Below the pieces are notes generated by a model. The model searched no databases. It was given only the letters and a program-made list of their open reading frames with translations, and was not told the origin of the DNA. The position numbers were made by a program, and so were the translations under genes. Shown in pieces: positions 53,934 to 64,000 of a DNA stretch of 64,000 nucleotides (its first letter is position 1; each line of letters opens with the position of its first letter). The stretch is from an uncultured Holophagales bacterium (GTDB lineage Bacteria > Acidobacteriota > Thermoanaerobaculia > Multivoradales > UBA5704), in NCBI GenBank assembly GCA_963842525.1, contig CAWJGT010000009.1, positions 768,001-832,000 on the forward strand. Reading direction: 5' to 3'.

Positions 53934-54096
53934 TGTCCGGCGTCAACTAGATTTGAGGGTCGGCGACAATTAGAACTGCGGGATCCTCCTCCAGTTCGTG
54001 TCAACACTCCTACGGGGGGCGGGGGGGCTTCTTTTAGGGGGCCAGGTGGGGGCTGGTCGGCTTTTGACCTCCTTCCGGGGGCAGGGACTTAGCAGG

Positions 54097-54126
54097 GAAG
54101 GATGCCCGCAGCTGCGGGCATCCTTC
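54097..54126. repeat. Perfect 30-bp palindrome downstream of istB
   Basis: GAAGGATGCCCGCAGCTGCGGGCATCCTTC equals its own reverse complement. Confidence 0.85.
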
Positions 54127-54174
54127 AGCGATTGCAATTATGCGCCGTAACATGGCCTATCCAAGCTCCGGAGC

Positions 54175-54951
54175 TCATGCCCCGCGGGCCCCCTTGGCTC
54201 CTGCAGCTCTCTCCTTGGCCGCCTGCGCCCGGTAGCTCTCGATGCTCAGCTCCAGGATCACCGAATGATGGACGATCCGATCCACCGCGGCCGCCGTCGT
54301 CATCGGGTCCTTGAAGATCTGCTCCCACTTGCTGAACACCAGGTTGCTGGTGATCAGCACCGAGCGCCTCTCGTACCGCTCGGCGATCAGGGTAAACAGA
54401 ACCTCCATCTCCTCGCGGCTTTGCTCGACGTAGCCGAGGTCGTCCAGGATCAGGGCTTCGAATCGGTCCAGCCGCTTCAGCTCGGCCGCCAGACGCAGAT
54501 CCCGCTTCGCGGCCAGAAGCCGCTGGACGATCTGATACGTCGGGGAAAACAGCACCGTCCGGCCCCCGCGCACCAGCTCCTGGCCCAGACCGCAGACCAG
54601 GTGCGACTTGCCCGTCCCAGGGTTGCCAAACACGATCAGATTGGTGGCTTGGTCCAGAAACGAGCCGTCCTGAAGAGCGGCCAGGGCCGCCCTGGCCTTG
54701 GGCGGAAGCCGGCCTACCTCGAAGCCCGCCAGGCTCTTTTCCCGCGGCAGCCTGGACTCCTGAAGCAGTCTCTCGACCCGGCGCTCGCACCGTTCGCTGG
54801 CCTCTTGCTCGGCAAGGGCCAGAAGATACCCCTCGTGGGTGAGCCCCCCACGCACCGCCTGAGCGGCCACCGTCGCGTACTCCCGGGCGAAGGTCGGCAG
54901 GCACAACGACTTCAGCAGCAGCGGCAACCCCGCCTCGCTGGCCGGCTTCAC
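54175..54951 (-). CDS. istB: IS21 helper ATPase
   Basis: GNPGTGKSHL, LILDDLGY, ITSN, DRIVHH; GTG overlaps the istA stop. Confidence 0.95.
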   Translation of the reverse strand: MKPASEAGLPLLLKSLCLPTFAREYATVAAQAVRGGLTHEGYLLALAEQEASERCERRVERLLQESRLPREKSLAGFEVGRLPPKARAALAALQDGSFLDQATNLIVFGNPGTGKSHLVCGLGQELVRGGRTVLFSPTYQIVQRLLAAKRDLRLAAELKRLDRFEALILDDLGYVEQSREEMEVLFTLIAERYERRSVLITSNLVFSKWEQIFKDPMTTAAAVDRIVHHSVILELSIESYRAQAAKERAAGAKGARGA

Positions 54952-56423
54952 AGGCCACCTCCTGCCGCGGCGATGCACTCGTCGTAGACCCGCAGGTCCG
55001 GAGGATCGATCCGGCACACCGGCGGCTCCAGGCGCACCGGCCGAAGGGCCGTCTGTACCTGCGCGAAGTCCCGCAGCTCGCCGCCCTCCAACAGGGCCGA
55101 AAGCGCACCCTCCACCGCGCTTTCTCCCGTGCTCGCCGCCAGGTGCAGAATCCGCACATACTCCACGTCCGCCCGCGCTCCGTGACGCCCCTCCAGCGCA
55201 TCATAGGTCTGCCGGAAAACCAAGCTCGGAAACAGCGCCTCCCGGTACCGGTAGCGCGCGAACGCTCCCGGCTTGCGGATCAACGACCAGATCAGGTGGC
55301 GATAGTCGATGGCGGCGTGACCGCGGCCCCGCAGGCGCTCCATCTCGGCCACCCGCTCACCGGCAAAGTGCACCTCGATCCGCTCCGCATACAGCCGAAT
55401 GTCCACCCACTCGCCGATCAGCCGCGAGGCCACCGAGTAGACGTTGTTGGCCACCCGCAGGGTCGAAAACACGCTGACCCGCACCCGCTCCCGCCGGAAG
55501 TCGTCCAGGCGCGACAGCGGCAGATCCCTCATCCGCTCCAGCTCCTCGCGCAGCTTGACGGCTCGGCCACGGTTGCGCCCCGAAAAGATCTCACCCAAAA
55601 ACACCTCGTACGCGGCGCGGCTCGAAAACTCCCGGCCCCCCCGCAGCAGAAGCGCCTGCTGGACAGCCCGCTTGAAGCGGTGGTGCGCCTGCTCCACATC
55701 GCCGTTTTCGTGGCCACGCCCAGGGGTGTTGCAGTCGGGCTGGACCTGGTAGTGCGCCAGCGCACCCAGGTAGCGCTCGTTGAACGTCCGGCCCCCCTCG
55801 CCCAGCTCGTGGGTGGCCGCCGAAAGGTTGTCCGTCCGGTGTAGCTTCGGCACCTTGCCCAACTCCCAGACGGCGGCCTGGAAACCCCCGATGAGAGCCT
55901 CGAAACTCTCCGAAAAGCAGATCCCGCCCGTCTCCCAGTTCGAATACGGCAACACGAAGTGGAACATCAGGTGGTCGAACGGCTCGCCCCCGAGGCAAAT
56001 CCCCAGCTCCGTCATGCTCGTGAAGTCGCTCTGGGCGTACTCCCCCGGCCGGTGTTCCTGCGCGAACATGACCTCCCGCTCGGGACCCTGCGACGCCCGC
56101 CAACGGCGGATCCGCCGCTGCAATGTACGCAGCTGACCGTCCGAAAAGCTCAGCTCCGGCCGCCCCCTCAGCAGCTCGAAGATCGTCACCGCCTCCAGGC
56201 CGGGCGCCTGCTTGAGCATCCCTTCGATCTCCGGCCACACCCCGGCAAACGGGTCCGGCCGGGTCCGATACTGCCGCATGACCTTGCGCTGGCCCGGAAG
56301 CGCACCCTCGCGATACCGCCGTGCCGTGTTCTCACTCATCCCAGAGCGCAGAGCTGCGCTCGACAGCGACTCTCCCTTGCCAAGTTCCATCCTCAACCTC
56401 CTTACCTGCTTATCCGTCAACAT
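54948..56423 (-). CDS. istA: IS21 transposase
   Basis: HTH, QSDF, RTDN, HENGDVE, YSV. Confidence 0.95.
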   Translation of the reverse strand: MLTDKQVRRLRMELGKGESLSSAALRSGMSENTARRYREGALPGQRKVMRQYRTRPDPFAGVWPEIEGMLKQAPGLEAVTIFELLRGRPELSFSDGQLRTLQRRIRRWRASQGPEREVMFAQEHRPGEYAQSDFTSMTELGICLGGEPFDHLMFHFVLPYSNWETGGICFSESFEALIGGFQAAVWELGKVPKLHRTDNLSAATHELGEGGRTFNERYLGALAHYQVQPDCNTPGRGHENGDVEQAHHRFKRAVQQALLLRGGREFSSRAAYEVFLGEIFSGRNRGRAVKLREELERMRDLPLSRLDDFRRERVRVSVFSTLRVANNVYSVASRLIGEWVDIRLYAERIEVHFAGERVAEMERLRGRGHAAIDYRHLIWSLIRKPGAFARYRYREALFPSLVFRQTYDALEGRHGARADVEYVRILHLAASTGESAVEGALSALLEGGELRDFAQVQTALRPVRLEPPVCRIDPPDLRVYDECIAAAGGGL

Positions 56424-56534
56424 CAGCCCCCCAATTCATGAGGGGCAAGAGCCTACGGGACAAGCGTTTACGAGGACTGGAACCCCGCAATTCTAATTGT
56501 CGTCACCCCGCAGTTCTAATTGTCGCCGAACAAC

Positions 56535-56758
56535 CTGCGGACGATCTCGAACAAGCTGTCTCGTGCCGCGTTCTACATCCTGCGCGACCAGGTGCCGTTC
56601 CGGTCGGCGCAAGCTTTCGGTTGATTCAGGTGGGGACAGGGAGCCTGCAATAGGTGCTGGGCGAAAGAACCCTCCGTGGCTGATTGGCCCTTGTCCCCCA
56701 CCGTTTTTGGCTCTTTTATTGGGGATGCGCCCAGGTCGTGAGCCCGAATGTGCTGGCA
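56535..56758 (+). mobile_element. IS110-family remnant: recombinase C-terminus plus structured non-coding end (may resume after 62177)
   Basis: LRTISNKLSRAAFYILRDQVPFRSAQAFG* (56535-56624), then stem GGTGGGGACAGGG / CCCTTGTCCCCCACC enclosing GAGCC..TGATTGG. Confidence 0.65.
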
Positions 56759-57533
56759 GTGCGACACGAAGGGAGGTCTGATGTGAGCTGATTTGCCGAT
56801 TACAGAGAGACCTCCTGGGTCTCGAAGGCCAGCGGGTGGAAGTCCCGCCCGGGGAATTGTCGGTTCGCCCGGTAGCCACTGGAGCAGCCGAGCTCGAGCA
56901 ATCGTCCGGCTGAAGCCTCCGGGGAAGTCCTCGGTGCAACCGAGGTGCAAATGCGCAGGCCGAAAAGCACGTGAACCCTGAGCAGGCCTCGATAGTTTCT
57001 CGCTGGAGCCGACCCTCCTGCCATAAGGGGAAGGCCGTCGGGGGGTGGGGGAGCAACCGACCGAAGAACCCGTCCTCTCCAGCCGGGGTAGTGGGGTCAG
57101 CATGCGCAGACAAGGTCTTTGAGGCAACGTGTGAGATCCACATAGGTGGTGGGTCGCGGCCACCAACCGAGGTGATCTGAAATGGTCAGCCTCGGGCCGT
57201 GTGGAAGTCGGAGGGGCCCATGGTACCGAGGAAGCCGGGTAATGCCGGTGGAGGGACGGAGCCCTGGTTCGGGCATGCTTCTCAACGAGAAGGAGACCGG
57301 GAATTGACGATGAGTCTAGAACCCGATCAAGTCGAGTGTAGACGCCCGCCTTATTTCGTGACCGCCGCCTGAGTTTTTCCCAGTTTTCAGCGTGGTCAGG
57401 TAGATTCGTCGGCGCAGGAGTGCGGGACGATTTTGCCTGTGGAGAGGTCGGGCAAGGCAAGCGAAGCCCGCCGGGCTCTCCTTGTGTCTTTTGGCGGACC
57501 GGGGATGACCCGACGGGCTTCCGAGAGGAGGCC

Positions 57534-58097
57534 ATGTTAAGTCTGAAGGGCGTGGGCTGCAAGCAGTATCGAGAGCAGATGGACGGCGGGGCGGTTCCCG
57601 AGCTGAGCTGCCCGGATCCGGATTGTCAGAGGACCCGTCTGCGGGGCCACGGCTCCTACAAGCGCTTCCTCGCAGGAGTGCTTCAGGCCTTGCGGCGGGT
57701 GCGGTGCCCGCGTTGCAGGGTCAGCCATGCGGTGTTGCCGGAGGACGTGTGCGCCTATCGCGATTTGACCTTGGCGGCCGTGGAGGCGGGTCTGGCTGCG
57801 GGGAGTCCGAGCGAAGGCGCCGAGGTTTCAGGGCAGTGCGGCAGTTCGGGGGTGCGGCGGGTGCGGGGTTGGCTGCGCAGCGCGCACGAGCCCTTTGCCG
57901 CCAAGCTGCAGGCGCTGCTGGGGCCAGTGCCGGCTCCGTGGTGGCGGGGGGCGCAGGAGGTGGTGGGCCAGGCGGCGGGTTGGTTGACGCGGCTGCGGCA
58001 CTTTCTGTGGTCGTCCTGGGGCTGCTTTTTCGGCGGAGTGAGCGGACTGTTCCGCCACGGCCGGCCGTCCTGGCGGTCAGGGGAGGCCTCTCCATAG
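57534..58097 (+). CDS. Zn-finger transposon protein (DUF6431-like)
   Basis: GAGGAGG RBS; CPDPDC..GHGSY.R..RVRCPRC..HAVLP. Confidence 0.75.
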   Translation: MLSLKGVGCKQYREQMDGGAVPELSCPDPDCQRTRLRGHGSYKRFLAGVLQALRRVRCPRCRVSHAVLPEDVCAYRDLTLAAVEAGLAAGSPSEGAEVSGQCGSSGVRRVRGWLRSAHEPFAAKLQALLGPVPAPWWRGAQEVVGQAAGWLTRLRHFLWSSWGCFFGGVSGLFRHGRPSWRSGEASP

Positions 58098-58188
58098 GTT
58101 GGTAACTACCCATCGCAGGGTTCTGCCACGAAGCTACTGGCGGGGGCTGTGGGATGGTCCCAGAGCCCGATTGCGGAGACTTCGTGCG

Positions 58189-59517
58189 ATGGATGAGAGC
58201 CAAAGAGAGCAGATTGCGTTGTTTCGCCACAGCGTCATTGCCGAGCTGATCAGCCGGCCGTTGGCGCCACGCGAAAAAGAGAAGCTGTTGTGTGCGATCG
58301 CGGAAAAGACGTGGACGATCCCGGGCAGCGCGCGCAGCCACGTCGGCCGTTCGACGGTGCGAGATTGGCTCGAGCTGTACCAGATCCATGGGTTTGAGGG
58401 GCTCAAGCCGGGCCCGCGTACCGATGCCGGGCGCTCGCGGGCGATCCCGGAGGAGGTGCAGGATCTGCTGCTGGCGCTGCGGGCCGAGCGGCCCGGTGCT
58501 TCGCTCGACAGCCTGATCCGCGCCGTGCATCTGTGCGGCCGCTTTGCGCCCAATCTGCGGCTGTCGCGCAGCAGCGTGCACCGCTTCTTCGCCGCCCAGG
58601 CGGTGCCGGCCCGCCAAGGGTCCAGCGCCGAGCCGGACGCTTTGGCTTTCACCTTTCCGCATGTCAACGACCTGTGGACCTCCGACCTGATGCACGGGCC
58701 CCGCCTGCTGGTGCCGGGGCGCAAGGACGGCGGCAAGACCTACCTCTACGCCTTCCTCGATGACGCCTCGCGCATGGTGCCGTTTGCCGCCTTCTACCTG
58801 GCCGAAAACGCCGCCTGCTTCCAGGACGCTCTGAAGCAGGCTCTGCTGCGCCGCGGCCTGCCGCGACGGCTCTACTGCGACAACGGCGCCACCTTCCGCA
58901 CCCACCACCTGCAGGTCATCTGCGCCACGCTGAACATCTCCCTGGTCCACTCCCGGCCCCACAAGCCGCGCGGTCGCGGCAAGATCGAGCGCTTCTTCCG
59001 CCACGTCCGCACCGCCTTTGTCCCCCACCTCACCAGCGAGGTCCTCGCCGATCTGGCCCAGCTCAACCGCGTCTTCTGGGCCTGGCTGGAGGGCGAGTAT
59101 CACCAGACTGCCCACGGCGGCCTGGACGGGCAAACGCCTCTGGACCGCTTTCTGAAGGACCAGGCCCTGATCCGCCCGGCCCCCGAGCACCTGGAGGCCT
59201 GGCTGCGCATGAAGGTCACCCGCCGGGTCGGCCGCGACCGCACCGTCCACCTCGACGGCCGTCTCTATGAGGCTCCCGATGGCTATGCCGGTGAGACCGT
59301 CGACGTCCTCTACGATCCCTATGACCCCGCCCGGCCCGTCCACTTTTGCCGCAAAGGCCAGAGCGCCGAGCTGCCTCTGCGCCGGCTCGACCTCGCCACC
59401 AACGCCACCCTGCGCCGACTCGAAAGAAACAGCGAGCCGGCCAGAGAAGCGCCCACCACCGGCATCAGCTACCTCGAGCTCATCGCCAAGAAGTTCTATC
59501 AGGGGGAGCCCCAGTGA
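58189..59517 (+). CDS. DDE integrase/transposase (rve, Mu-like C-terminus)
   Basis: IALFRH, WTSD, LDDASR, YCDNG, GKIERFF. Confidence 0.93.
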   Translation: MDESQREQIALFRHSVIAELISRPLAPREKEKLLCAIAEKTWTIPGSARSHVGRSTVRDWLELYQIHGFEGLKPGPRTDAGRSRAIPEEVQDLLLALRAERPGASLDSLIRAVHLCGRFAPNLRLSRSSVHRFFAAQAVPARQGSSAEPDALAFTFPHVNDLWTSDLMHGPRLLVPGRKDGGKTYLYAFLDDASRMVPFAAFYLAENAACFQDALKQALLRRGLPRRLYCDNGATFRTHHLQVICATLNISLVHSRPHKPRGRGKIERFFRHVRTAFVPHLTSEVLADLAQLNRVFWAWLEGEYHQTAHGGLDGQTPLDRFLKDQALIRPAPEHLEAWLRMKVTRRVGRDRTVHLDGRLYEAPDGYAGETVDVLYDPYDPARPVHFCRKGQSAELPLRRLDLATNATLRRLERNSEPAREAPTTGISYLELIAKKFYQGEPQ

Positions 59518-60320
59518 ACCTCTATACCACCGCCTTCGGCTTCACCCGGCCGCCCTTCCACGGCCCCCTCACCGCCGACTCTCTGTTTCGGCCTCAGGGG
59601 CTCGAAGAGCTCCACAGCCGTCTGCGCTACCTGGTCGACTCCAGGGCCATCGGCCTGCTCACCGGCGAGCCGGGCAGCGGCAAAACCACCGCCCTGAGGC
59701 GACTGCGCGACGATCTCCACCCCGACCAGGTGCGCGCTGTGTACCTGCACGACACCCTGGTCAACCCCGCCGACTTCTGCCGCCAACTCGCCCTTGCACT
59801 CGGCCTCCAGCCCGAATGGTCTCGCGCCATGACCTTCCGCCTCGTCCAGCAAGAGATCCAACGCCTCGTCAAAGACCGCCACATAACCGTCCTGCTCATC
59901 GTCGACGAAGCCCACAACCTCAGGCCCGACGTCCTCGCCCTCTTCCCCCTGCTCGCCAACTTTGAATGGGACGCAGAAGGACGGCTTGCCTTTCTCCTGG
60001 CCGGTCAATCCGGATTGCGACAGATCCTGCGCCTGTCGCATCTGGAGGCCCTCGCTCAGCGCATCACCATCCGCTTCACCCTGCGCGGCTTCGACCGAGA
60101 CACCACCTGCTGCTACCTCGAACATCGCCTCAAGATCGCCGGCCTGGATCGACCCCTCTTCACCGCCCCCGCCCAGGAAGCCCTCTTTGAAGCCTCCCAG
60201 GGCATCATGCGCAGAATCGACACCCTGGCCCACCACGCCCTGGCCGCCGCAGCCACTTCCAGAGCCAAGCTCGTCGAGCCCGAGCACGTCCTGCAAGCCG
60301 CCGAGGAGATGCGCTCATGA
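59514..60320 (+). CDS. ExeA/AAA_22 transposition ATPase
   Basis: GEPGSGKTT, IVDEAHNL, LAGQ, ALAQRI; GTGA overlap with the transposase. Confidence 0.92.
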   Translation: MNLYTTAFGFTRPPFHGPLTADSLFRPQGLEELHSRLRYLVDSRAIGLLTGEPGSGKTTALRRLRDDLHPDQVRAVYLHDTLVNPADFCRQLALALGLQPEWSRAMTFRLVQQEIQRLVKDRHITVLLIVDEAHNLRPDVLALFPLLANFEWDAEGRLAFLLAGQSGLRQILRLSHLEALAQRITIRFTLRGFDRDTTCCYLEHRLKIAGLDRPLFTAPAQEALFEASQGIMRRIDTLAHHALAAAATSRAKLVEPEHVLQAAEEMRS

Positions 60321-60559
60321 ACACACCCGAACCCATCCTCGACTACCTGCAAAACCAGGTCCCCGAGTACCCGTTCGATCGCAAGCTCGACGAAGAGTTT
60401 GTCGACGAGCTGATCGCAGACTTCCAGGATCTCAACATTCTCGAGGAGACCAAGACCTTCAGGTGGTATCACAACAACCGGCCGGCCGCCCGTTTCAAGA
60501 ACGTCCGTGTCGGCCTGCGGCGCTGGATTGCCAACTCCTGGGCGCGAAGACCAGAATGA
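60317..60559 (+). CDS. Small transposon-encoded protein (80 aa)
   Basis: ATGA overlap with the ATPase; GAGGAG RBS; lies inside the IRs. Confidence 0.75.
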   Translation: MNTPEPILDYLQNQVPEYPFDRKLDEEFVDELIADFQDLNILEETKTFRWYHNNRPAARFKNVRVGLRRWIANSWARRPE

Positions 60560-62335
60560 ATCAAAGCAACTGCTGAAAACTCGGCCCCTTCGGTCAAAAA
60601 CAGTCCCGGATTCCACCGCCACCCGGCCCAATCCGGGACTGCTCTCTTCCCCCTTCTGTCCGCCACGAAATATTTCGAAAAGGTGGCCACGGAATTACGC
60701 GGGACTCGACATCGAGCGACTCCGGAAGAAGCTGTATGAGAAGGCCAAGCGGGAGCCAGACTTTCGGTTCTACACGCTGTACGACAAGGTGTGCTGGGCG
60801 GAAACCCTGGAGAGGGCCTACCGACAGGCGAAAGCCAACGACGGAGCGCCCGGAGTCGACGGGGTCCGGTTTGAGGACATTGAGGCGTACGGTGTAGAGC
60901 GGTGGCTGGCCGAGCTTCGGCAGGAACTGGTGGAAGAGACCTACCGCCCCCAACCGGTGCGGCGGGTGATGATCCCGAAGCCCGGCGGAGGCGAGCGTCC
61001 CCTCGGAATCCCGACCATCAGGGATCGGGTGGTGCAGACCGCCGTCGTGCTGATCCTTGAGCCGATCTTCGAAGCTGATTTCGAGGACAACGTCTATGCC
61101 TACCGGCCGGAGCGCAGTGCGCACGGCGCACTGGCCGAGGTGCAGGGGCGGTTGTATGGAGGCCAGCAGCACGTCGTAGATGCCGACGTGACGAAGTACT
61201 TCGACACCATCCCCCACGCCGAGCTGTTGCAGAGCGTGGCCCGGCGGGTGGCCGACGGGAAGATCCTGCATCTGCTCAAGCTGTGGCTGAAATCCCCGGC
61301 GGAAGAGAGGGATGAGAGGGGAAACCGGCGGATAACAGGCGGCAAGAAGAGCAAGCGGGGGACTCCTCAAGGCGGAGTTGTTTCACCTCTGATGGCTAAC
61401 ATCTACATCAACCGTCTTCTGCGCCACTGGAGGAAGACCGGGGCGACGCAACGGTTGGGACAGATCGTCTCCTATGCCGATGACTTCGTGATTGTCTGCG
61501 CAAGCCGCCGCCAGGCCGAAGAAAGTCTGGCGCTGGTATCGCGCTGGTTGGCGAAGCTCGGGCTGACGCTTCATCCCACCAAAACGCGCCTCTGTCACGC
61601 CCGAGAAGAGCCGTTTGACTTCCTGGGCTACACCTTCGGGCCGGTGCGGCACTGGCTGAGCGGGAAGAGATTCATCTCGGCTCGGCCATCCAAGAAGGCC
61701 CAGAAGAGGCTCAAGGAGAAGATCAACATCCGGCTACGCCGGGGAAACCCAACCCCTTGGCCCAAGCTGCGAGACCGGCTCAACCGACTCCTGTCGGGGT
61801 GGGCCGAGTACTTCAGCTTCGGTTTTACGGGCCAAGCTGACACAGCCATCAGCTGGCACGTGCGGGCACGGGTTCGGCGATTCCTCTGCCGGCGGCATAA
61901 GCTGCGCGTCAGCGGAACCAGCCGATTCAGCTACTCTGAGATCCATGGCAAGGCGGGAGTGATCGACATCCGCCAGAGGCGTCTGCAAGGAAGTCCCGTG
62001 CATGCCCTCTCGTGAAGCCCGTCCGAGAGCCGGATGCGGGAGATCCGCAAGTCCGGTTCGATGAGCGGCGGTGGGAAACGGAGACACGGCCGAGACTGAG
62101 GCACCGGCGAGTGGCGAAAGCCGCCGGAAACAGCTACTCCCTCGACCTACAGACACCGCGCCCGCCGCCGACTCTACCCTCTGAAGCGGGCACTTATTCG
62201 GCTCAACCAAAATCCGCCCGAGCGTGTCTATTCATGTAAAGGCAAGGAGGGACTCAGTGGATCACGGGTCGGGATCGATGTGTGACGATTGCACGCAAGA
62301 GCTTCTCTACAGATCGATGACCGAGAGGAGCGAAG

Positions 62336-63118
62336 ATGGCAAGCGATGACCCTAAGACCGGGAAGCCTGCCCCGGGCTCCGGTCAGAACGTGGTTCGTGG
62401 GGACAACTTCGGCTTGATCAACGTGGGTGGCAGCATCGGCGGCAGTGCCACCGTGGTTCATGCGCAGTCTCCGCCTCGGGTAGAGACCGCGCTCCCGTCC
62501 GGGGCGGCAGGGAGCAACTCCGTCATGCGCATTCTGTTCTTGGGAGCCAATCCGGAGGGCGCGCCATCCCTGCGCCTCGATCACGAGGTCCGGGAGATCG
62601 ACCTCGCGTTGCGCCAAGCCGACTTCCGGGATCGCTGCGACCTGCGCCAACAGAATGCCTTGCGGGTGACCGACCTGCAGAACGCGCTGCTGCGCCACCG
62701 GCCGCAGATCGTCCACTTCAGCGGCCATGGAGTTGCGGACGGGCTCTACCTGGAGGATGAAGCGGGGATGGTCCGCAAGGTCGAGGGGAGCGTCATAGCC
62801 AGGATTCTCGCCGTGTTCAAGAAACAGATCCGCTGCGTAGTGCTGAACGCCTGCTATTCCCGGGACCAGGCCGAGGCGATAGCCAGCGACATCGATTGCG
62901 TCATCGGCATGTCCACGGACATCGGAGACTTGGCGGCGGTCCGTTTCTCTACGGCCTTCTATGGAGCTCTCGCTTTTGGAAGCAGTGTCGCGACGGCCTT
63001 CGATTTGGGCTGCTCGCGGATCGATCTCGACGGCTTGGGGGAGGGAAACACTCCGCAACTGATCGCGTTCCGGCAGAAACCTGAAGAGGTCGTCTTCATC
63101 AAGGAGGAACTGAGATGA
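62336..63118 (+). CDS. CHAT-domain (caspase-like) protein
   Basis: ILFLGANP, LRLDHEVREI, VHFSGHG, VVLNACYS. Confidence 0.9.
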   Translation: MASDDPKTGKPAPGSGQNVVRGDNFGLINVGGSIGGSATVVHAQSPPRVETALPSGAAGSNSVMRILFLGANPEGAPSLRLDHEVREIDLALRQADFRDRCDLRQQNALRVTDLQNALLRHRPQIVHFSGHGVADGLYLEDEAGMVRKVEGSVIARILAVFKKQIRCVVLNACYSRDQAEAIASDIDCVIGMSTDIGDLAAVRFSTAFYGALAFGSSVATAFDLGCSRIDLDGLGEGNTPQLIAFRQKPEEVVFIKEELR

Positions 63119-64000
63119 ACAGCCGAATGTCCGGACGACGTGCCTTTATCCTTGCGGTCTCGGTCCCCCTCCTCTCGCTCTCCTGCCAGCAGGTGCGGAT
63201 GATCGATCTCACCGGCGGTACCTATCTGAAGATCCAGTACAACGAGACAAGGCCGACCATGGCTCTCTTGACCACATCGGATCAGCCGTCCCTCAAGCAG
63301 GAGCGAATCGTCTCGGCCATCAGTACCTATCTCAGCCGCTGGTCCGAAAGCGAGAGCATCGAAGCACATGGCAGTATCATCGAGTTCTCGACCGTCTCCC
63401 AAGACAGGCGTCTCTCCCAGGCCTTCTCCGAAGAAGACATCCTGCAGTTTGTCATTGTTCCAGCGGCTCCAGGACCCGCCGCACCACCACCCATCGCTGA
63501 CCCTATCCTCGTTCCCTCCGATACGTGCACGTATGCTCTCGATGATGAGTGCGACGAACCGCGCCTCTGCTCTGCGGGTACCGACGCAACAGATTGTGGC
63601 AGCATTCAATCTTACACCGAGCAGATTGATGACAGTTGCACCTATGCAAACGATAGTGTCTGTGACGAACCAGCCCCCTGCCAGGTGGGAACCGATTCCA
63701 CAGATTGCAGAGAGACCATCCGTACGTCAGTCTCCCTTCCGACCTTCGAAATAGTGGTCATCCCGTTCTCTTGGATTCACAGCGTCAGAACCTCCGGGAA
63801 AGGCGATCTGACGCTCACCATCGAGGATGAGTTGAGGGAAAAGCTCGAGACAATCCTGAATGTGGATCCCGAAGCAGTTTTGCAGGTCCATCAGGACGGC
63901 ACCATTCTGGCCAGTGGACTTCTCAGAAACTACTACCAGCGCGGCTCTTTGCGTCTCCCGGCCGACGATCTGGACCTGCTGCCGTTCGTTGGAGAAGCGA
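63115..64000 (+). CDS. Lipoprotein with two Cys-rich repeats, partial (runs off the right edge)
   Basis: Not in the ORF track. ATGA overlap with CHAT; LLSLSC lipobox-like; DTCTYALDDECDEPRLCSAGTDATDC and DSCTYANDSVCDEPAPCQVGTDSTDC. Confidence 0.8.
   Translation, partial: MNSRMSGRRAFILAVSVPLLSLSCQQVRMIDLTGGTYLKIQYNETRPTMALLTTSDQPSLKQERIVSAISTYLSRWSESESIEAHGSIIEFSTVSQDRRLSQAFSEEDILQFVIVPAAPGPAAPPPIADPILVPSDTCTYALDDECDEPRLCSAGTDATDCGSIQSYTEQIDDSCTYANDSVCDEPAPCQVGTDSTDCRETIRTSVSLPTFEIVVIPFSWIHSVRTSGKGDLTLTIEDELREKLETILNVDPEAVLQVHQDGTILASGLLRNYYQRGSLRLPADDLDLLPFVGEA

Follow-up and report, generated by a model that had tools for sequence, protein, structure and literature searches.

A group II intron in the DNA stretch analysed here (the window: 64,000 nucleotides (nt), G000:C9:768001-832000, from the genome of an uncultured Holophagales bacterium) interrupts the 3′ non-coding end of an IS110-family insertion sequence (IS), and it was probably an opportunistic arrival at a site with a short match (ATGTGC-TGGCA|CCTC) in an IS copy that is now a remnant. 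We give this reading a probability of about 0.8. The genome comprises 9.95 Mb in 34 contigs; region 55000-64000 of the window was examined by direct reading, a list of open reading frames (ORFs), Rfam and Pfam, and the genome was searched by BLAST. Four mobile elements are nested there, from left to right an IS21-family element, a piece of the IS110-family element, the group II intron and a transposon within the intron. The locus is a pile-up of these four elements and no working partnership. Our reading draws on the anatomy of the locus, the copies of the IS in this genome that lack the intron, covariation in the non-coding RNA region of the IS, segments of that region that match the element's ends, and the unrelated sites in which homologous introns reside. 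A sequence-only reading of the window had already placed a group II intron in the 3′ non-coding end of an IS110-family element, and Rfam, Pfam and the intron-free copies bore this out.

The IS110-family piece at this locus measures 224 nt (56535-56758, plus strand). It begins with the last 29 codons and the stop codon of an IS110/IS1111-type transposase gene (56535-56624; TGA at 56622-56624). The 29-amino acid (aa) peptide alone matched no Pfam family, and it shared 96.6% identity with residues 310-338 of the transposase (338 aa) encoded by intact copies, in line with the IS110-like C-terminal peptide recognised by the sequence-only reading. The intact transposase itself matched PF01548 (2.2e-14) and PF02371 (7e-18). 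The following 134 nt (56625-56758, plus strand) are the first part of the IS 3′ non-coding RNA region and form the 5′ exon of the intron. Four further copies of this exon were found in the genome, all on contig C9 (96.0% identity once, 93.4% three times), and each forms part of a full-length element (about 1,552 bp). All four are free of the intron and read ...GAATGTGCTGGCA|CCTCTGAACC... across its site, so that the exon junction ...TGCTGGCA|CCTCTGAA is contiguous in 4/4 copies. The 8 nt CCTCTGAA after the window intron (62178-62185, plus strand) are thus the same 8 nt that follow the site in every intron-free copy; since the first five of them are common to other 3′ exons of this intron, only the GAA is specific to the IS. 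The two exons, which had been expected to be contiguous in intact copies, are so in all four, but on the 3′ side for these 8 nt only. A query with 62178-62330 had no other match in the genome, and 62186-62300 is therefore no IS sequence. Intact elements run about 300 nt beyond the site to a right end (RE) reading ...GAGCCTTCTAATGGGTG. Nowhere in the assembly was the missing tail joined to another intron copy, and besides the intact copies the RE occurs only as two solo fragments on contig C3.

The IS carries subterminal inverted repeats, CTAGAAGGCTC near the left end (LE) and GAGCCTTCTAA near the RE, which are complementary at 10/11 positions, are kept in relatives and agree with the 7-17 bp subterminal repeats that mark the IS1111 group. 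Its LE is short, with about 89 nt before the start codon, and its RE long, with 443 nt after the stop. Based on the repeats, the unequal ends and the 338-aa transposase, we conclude that the host is an IS1111 type of the IS110 family; its closest relatives come from metagenome-assembled genomes (MAGs) of Acidobacteriota, Thermoanaerobaculia and Holophagales. One intact copy (G000:C9:242873-243506; L001/L006) has its last 318 bp duplicated in tandem, with a repeat unit that begins 10 nt 5′ of the intron site in module 2 of the RNA region described below. A remnant at G000:C1:~628220-628260 fuses the first bases of the left end to the last bases of the right end (GCTGATGA|ATGGGTG). The GCACCTAT motif stands in inverted copies to either side of this remnant, which is possibly an internally deleted IS.

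The intron extends from 56759 to 62177 on the plus strand, as delimited with Rfam and Pfam, and is 5,419 bp long with the nested transposon counted. Its 5′ end, GTGCG at 56759, fits the conserved GUGYG. RF02003 (D1-D4-4) matched at 56830-56970 over model positions 1-138 of 138 (89.8 bits, E 4.2e-19), and RF00029 (D5/D6) matched at 62025-62177, up to the 3′ splice site, with 40.9 bits (gathering score, 40). This low score is due to a long insertion in the D6 region, which is common to intact intron copies and is therefore no defect of the window copy. An ORF at 60507-62015 matched RVT_1 (1.3e-43) and GIIM (2.3e-10), and the Pfam search revealed no endonuclease domain in this reverse transcriptase (RT)/maturase. 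The gene for the intron-encoded protein (IEP) is split by the transposon after codon 9, codons 1-9 lying at 57311-57336 and the remainder at 60717-62015, and is uninterrupted in the intron copy on C3. The genome has three further intron copies, on C3, on C23 and, lacking the ORF, on C34, with 94.5-98.4% identity to the window intron in the 5′ part and 95.1-99.9% in the 3′ part. The last 1,466 nt are 99.93% identical among three copies. Splicing of the window intron may still be feasible, with the 99.9%-identical copies on C3 and C23 as a potential source of maturase in trans. Among the Logan contigs of four public sequencing runs, none connected 56758 with 62178, a result that we do not count against any reading. 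RNA contigs from runs X15-X17 matched parts of the intron only, at 90-99% identity, and are uninformative on splicing or expression at the window locus.

Exon recognition probably follows the pairing that had been pointed out from the sequence. Exon-binding site 1 (EBS1), TGCCA at 57019-57023, is complementary to the intron-binding site IBS1, TGGCA at 56754-56758, and the candidate EBS2, GCACGT at 56967-56972, to IBS2, ATGTGC at 56748-56753, with one G-U pair. All of the last 11 nt of the 5′ exon are paired in this way. Across the intron family, all visible 5′ exons (37/37) offer the TGGCA that EBS1 pairs with, and of the 16 metagenome introns in which the search pattern located the EBS1 region, 14 retain CTGCCA; since IBS1 and EBS1 are invariant among copies, there is no covariation to support the pairing. 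The candidate EBS2 also pairs with GTGC(C) in 8 metagenome exons.

To define the RNA region that the intron interrupts, we compared homologous 3′ regions from six other genomes among 61 relatives, together with the best 80 of 545 relatives' loci (49-84% protein identity). The alignments revealed three repeated modules, each consisting of a variable segment, G(T/C)GCTGG, a hairpin and a second variable segment. In the window, the stem arms of module 1 lie at 56629-56641 and 56688-56702 and enclose AGCC, GGTGCTGG and CTGATTGG. Of module 2 the 5′ half is present, with GAGCC at 56740-56744, a variable segment at 56745-56749 and GTGCTGG at 56750-56756, followed by CA and then the intron. The stem-loop and the second GAGCC..CTGG unit cut by the intron, as described in the sequence-only reading, are hence both there. 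RNAalifold predicted 56 pairs for 18 elements, 28 of them with compensatory changes. The predicted pairs were formed in 92.4% of cells, versus 80.0 ± 0.7% in shuffled alignments and 39-50% in controls with slid partners, and double-sided changes numbered 28 versus 19.9 ± 2.0; none of 500 shuffles reached either the pairing or the change value. The module 2 hairpin had been misaligned by MAFFT and was folded element by element, upon which it formed in 18/18 elements though the stem sequences differ widely. A conserved GATGCGCCC 5′ of module 2 pairs with a downstream GGGCGCGCA in 8 close relatives, or alternatively with the 5′ strand of the module 3 hairpin in 18 elements, with some compensatory changes; the two pairings may represent an alternative fold or a pseudoknot.

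The variable segments of these modules relate to the ends and surroundings of the element that carries them. The DNA immediately beyond an element's right end reappears, as its reverse complement, in the 5′ segment of the element's own module 1; in this genome, for example, AATAGGTGC pairs with GCACCTATT. The longest exact match of this segment averaged 7.17 nt with the own right flank and 5.41 nt with those of other elements, and matches of at least 8 nt were found in 9/18 own versus 17/306 cross comparisons, while the same-sense control was flat (4.78 versus 4.72). The 3′ segment of module 1 copies the own LE junction (6.39 versus 4.91 nt; reverse-complement control, 4.44 versus 4.63), and ATGxGTGG in module 3, where x is G, A or T, mirrors the RE terminus in 16/16 elements. 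One related IS has five copies in a single MAG (L032, L033, L034, L043 and L097), all of which share one insertion position in a palindromic REP-like repeat, and its module 1 segments match both halves of that repeat, which makes this a clean natural target. Because the structure covaries and the segments match each element's own ends and flanks, the non-coding region is very probably a guide RNA (seekRNA/bridge RNA), as the sequence-only reading had suspected; module 2 is a putative guide. Directly to the right of the IS right end, 2-4 direct repeats of GCAC plus about 9 nt were often seen (G000:C9:~1078330-1078380 and the right flanks of L044, L051, L045, L056, L073, L037 and L059). This unit is the sequence paired by the 5′ segment of module 1, and the repeats may be multiple targets or traces left by IS activity.

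Within this region the intron sits 134 nt past the transposase stop and 2 nt past the GCTGG of module 2, in sense orientation, in the 5′ strand of the module 2 hairpin stem and between the two variable segments of the module. The sequence-only reading proposed that the joined exons can form a stem and that splicing would restore the RNA. The stem indeed folds in silico, at -23.0 kcal/mol versus -12.97 ± 2.81 with the 3′ part shuffled (2/500 shuffles as low), and the complementarity is therefore not due to chance. However, the native fold differs: intact copies lack a partner for the proposed stem and form a local hairpin instead, which the intron splits. The 3′ arm of the stem (62190-62204), which is no IS sequence, can pair with the 5′ strand of module 2 and matches the reverse complement of the module 1 5′ segment at 8/9 nt. 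Together with the four nucleotides preceding it, the arm makes up a flank outside the IS with the motif GCGG|GCACTTATTCGGCTC (62186-62204, plus strand), which seems to resemble right-flank or target sequence of the IS, and similar motifs stand beside other IS copies. Judged from this likeness, 62186-62204 may be DNA recognised by the guide, located where the right flank of the IS should be, with the IS tail in between having been lost.

The window IS lacks about 300 nt, including the right end, and restoration of the RNA by splicing thus fails at this locus, where nothing of the tail follows beyond position +8. The loss may reflect a deletion, an exchange between introns or an assembly path swap. 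A clean deletion between the short homologies CCTCTGAA and CCTTCTAAT would account for the loss imperfectly, as the remaining GCGG differs from the terminal GGTG of the RE. We rejected a sigma-54-promoter likeness of TGGCAC-N5 at the RE, the -12 element of which does not fit the consensus.

The sites of homologous introns speak against a special targeting. The copies on C3, C23 and C34 have unrelated flanks (3/3) and share only TGGCA|CCT(C/A)T. Among 401 genomes of the class, the 5′ part of the intron was found in 37; five copies outside the window genome include the first base, and none of these (5/5) is preceded by IS sequence. A looser pattern applied to metagenome contigs yielded 29 loci, some of them duplicates of each other, and the 28 with at least 16 nt of 5′ exon are all in unrelated targets (28/28). 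Altogether, 36/37 visible 5′ exons lie outside IS110 elements and 1/37, that of the window, inside. All 37 end in TGGCA, 8/28 metagenome exons end in GTGCCTGGCA, and the 3′ exons mostly begin with CCTC. Around the 59 intron-bearing loci L112-L170 a transposase or RNA region was nearby in none but the window, 16 upstream ORFs from 9 intron-bearing loci showed no IS110 domains, and no palindromic natural target of the intron family was seen in 7 complete copies. The idea that the intron targets the guide-RNA scaffold is contradicted by this catalogue of sites, which had been named beforehand as its refuting test. Some of the observed flanks have features of their own. In public run X1, a soil-metagenome contig (at window 56753-57146) carries the intron 5′ end with one difference in 394 nt behind another 5′ flank, which consists of two tandem 13-14-nt units antisense to the IS flank motif, and tandem repeats stand just 5′ of TGGCA in G019 and L161.

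Under the reading that we prefer, a mobile group II intron would have reverse-spliced into DNA encoding the 3′ guide-RNA region of an IS1111-type element, at a site chosen by ordinary intron rules (EBS1, the candidate EBS2 and a 3′ exon CCTC) and not for being a guide RNA. The IS offers such a site because each RNA module has the conserved G(T/C)GCTGG, which in module 2 continues as CA|CCTC. Given the sense insertion between the variable segments of module 2, splicing could in principle restore the RNA in an intact element. For the window copy this has no bearing any more: its transposase gene has been lost to the IS21 insertion and exchange, the RNA region and right end are gone as stated, and the IEP gene is split by the transposon.

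Several observations weigh against parts of this reading. The RNA structure had been predicted from the alignment on which it was then tested, its agreement relative to the slid controls being inflated in this way, and the aligned rows are interrelated; two intact IS copies searched against Rfam 15 with an E limit of 1 gave no matches; and the variable segment of module 2 showed no signal for a partner in the own flanks or ends (5.11 nt own versus 5.04 cross). Introns with other EBS2-region sequences had no clear exon pairing, so that EBS2 stays a candidate. Moreover, the window site is the best match to this candidate EBS2, with 6/6 pairs (one G-U) versus 1, 3 and 2 of 6 at the other genome copies, and the IS site could thus be the cognate home of the intron lineage and not an ectopic one. 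The four identical empty sites that persist in the genome would also be odd for an active homing intron.

These points bear on a specialised relationship, in which the intron lineage targets the guide-RNA scaffold, is spliced from the precursor and rides on the IS. Its attraction lies in the sense insertion exactly within a conserved scaffold motif, in the superior EBS2/IBS2 match just mentioned, and in the presence of GTGCTGGCA followed by CC in module 2 of several related elements, which would make the site reusable. Furthermore, the commonest 5′ exon end, GTGCCTGGCA, has the layout of a module, a variable segment and then GTGC(C)TGG, and a related IS bears a second group II intron, unrelated to the first, across its right end, though in antisense. 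We nevertheless regard this relationship as improbable. A single visible exon out of 37 lies in an IS110 element, none of the four intact copies in the genome carries the intron, and the only copy that does is a dead fragment. In addition, none of the 80 related IS loci has the intron in its RNA region; matches to the IEP occurred at four of them, all beyond the right end. When metagenome contigs were scanned by exact pattern for GTGCTGGNN followed by the intron, none matched, although diverged cases would escape such a scan. Hitchhiking of the intron on the IS, the last step of the original proposal, was accordingly not observed at the site in any of these sets. A broader version, which we hold to be similarly far-fetched, would have the intron and IS lineages read the same short sequence, with the intron recurrently invading IS guide-RNA genes and IS-linked repeat arrays and being spliced in intact elements while the IS stays mobile. 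The commonest intron site (variable bases, GTGC(C), TGGCA | CCTC) is indeed also the antisense of the IS right-flank motif of GCAC plus about 9 nt. As separate observations, the second intron noted above (L097:2932-3010, minus strand; RF00029 65.1 bits, with an IEP about 32% identical) interrupts an IS with 82% transposase identity at its right subterminal repeat, antisense to the transposase gene, and at L039:2943-3368 a related IS adjoins a 3′ IEP fragment 88.7% identical (142 aa) to that of the window intron. The latter case indicates that these IS and intron lineages also nest in the reverse arrangement.

The 3′ flank raises a different question, namely whether recombination between intron copies, or a path swap by the assembler, joined the 3′ exon of another site to the window intron, in which case the IS would have undergone no internal deletion. 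A reciprocal swap of this kind was encountered at the IS21 copies of the window and C3, the 5-bp target duplications of which are exchanged: the left CCGGG of the window copy equals the right one of the C3 copy, and the left CCTGC of the C3 copy equals the right one of the window. Either two IS21 copies recombined reciprocally (an inversion) or the assembler swapped paths, and such exchanges, real or assembly-made, therefore occur here. The near-identity of the 3′ 1,466 nt in three intron copies would favour an exchange, and the IS identity after the intron is confined to 8 nt, 5 of them common to any site of the intron. Yet no intron copy in the assembly precedes the missing IS segment, the GAA after CCTCT matches the IS with a chance of about 1 in 64, and the flank motif is target-like and complementary to the 5′ strand of module 2, as expected if the IS sat there. 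Moreover, the 5-bp duplication around the nested transposon is intact, and both intron halves therefore belong together. On balance, a foreign 3′ flank seems to us possible but doubtful. Far less credible is an artefact in which the 224-nt IS fragment was mis-joined between two repeats, the IS21 element and the intron. Both neighbours are multi-copy, with 4 copies each; the best public DNA run, X1, has ~0.60 of the sampled words of 56535-57100, which equals the share of the intron; and the X1 contig across the intron 5′ end has the different 5′ flank mentioned above, so that this run seems to lack the IS/intron junction. On the other hand, the fragment is 93-96% identical to the four other copies and so represents a distinct locus, and the break falls at a site with 11/11 pairing after which the next 8 nt continue the IS, unlike a random mis-join. 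Contigs of up to 2 Mb also suggest that repeats of such size were resolved. We thus retain opportunistic insertion into a now-degraded IS copy as the best account of the locus.

The IS21-family element (53934-56533, minus strand) comprises istA (54948-56423) and istB (54175-55017), supported by Pfam matches to IstB_IS21 (1.4e-55), rve and Mu-transpos_C_2; its ends and 5-bp target duplications were read from 4 copies. Its insertion removes all of the IS110-family transposase gene except the last 29 codons. The C3 copy of IS21 (G000:C3:~1636199-1639817) is adjoined by the other part of the split IS110-type element, its positions 6-1020. The nested transposon in the IEP gene (57337-60711, plus strand; 3,375 bp), delimited by comparison with the uninterrupted intron copies, is flanked by the 5-bp duplication TCGAG at 57332-57336 and 60712-60716 and has imperfect terminal repeats starting with TGT. 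According to Pfam, it encodes a DUF6431 protein, an rve/Mu-type transposase and an AAA_22 ATPase, beside an 80-aa ORF. Six full-length copies of 99.9-100% identity, that of the window included, and additional partial copies are present in the genome, and the transposon looks recently active. A CHAT-domain gene (62336-63118; PF12770, 4.9e-9) lies directly 3′ of the nest.

With respect to its significance, the locus nicely illustrates how a retroelement can come to lie within a guide-RNA gene. If an intron in a seekRNA or bridge-RNA gene could splice out, RNA-guided recombinases could tolerate it or be regulated by it, and a spliceable guide insert would have some engineering appeal; the window locus does not show it. 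Two by-products may be of use: the well-supported three-module RNA in the 3′ end of an IS1111 subgroup of soil Acidobacteriota, which is a natural data set on guide layout, and the four identical empty intron sites supplied by the IS, which lend themselves to a direct homing test.

Bacterial intron insertion sites are reportedly the subject of work by Dai and Zimmerly from 2002. Bacterial group II introns nested in mobile elements resemble the present one in having an RT/maturase ORF in domain IV and EBS/IBS pairing, in being hit by insertions themselves, and in occurring in several copies per genome at sites with a short motif. They differ in the host sequence, which here is a guide-RNA gene and not a transposase gene or intergenic spacer. 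Relative to the Rfam families RF02003 and RF00029, the window intron agrees in the full-length RF02003 match, in D5/D6 reaching the 3′ splice site and in GTGCG, and departs in the D6 insertion. Our limited search of the literature brought up no case of a group II intron within an IS110 bridge-RNA gene. For the host, the comparison is with the IS1111 group, which according to two papers has its seekRNA/bridge RNA in the long 3′ end and transposases of 330-350 aa (Siddiquee et al. 2024, PMC11187229; Durrant et al. 2024, PMC11208160). The present element is alike in its 338-aa DEDD transposase, subterminal repeats and short LE with long RE, and the TTGACA box at its RE would fit the junction promoter described for seekRNA elements. 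The order of the segments is likewise the same as in the description of IS1111-type seekRNAs, in which the top-strand complement stands 5′ of the bottom-strand complement; here, the top-strand complement stands 5′ of the top-strand match (PMC11187229). The main difference from the seekRNAs characterised in these sources, which measure 82-96 nt or 154 nt in a long form, is that the region described here, known from sequence, exceeds 300 nt and is organised in three modules.

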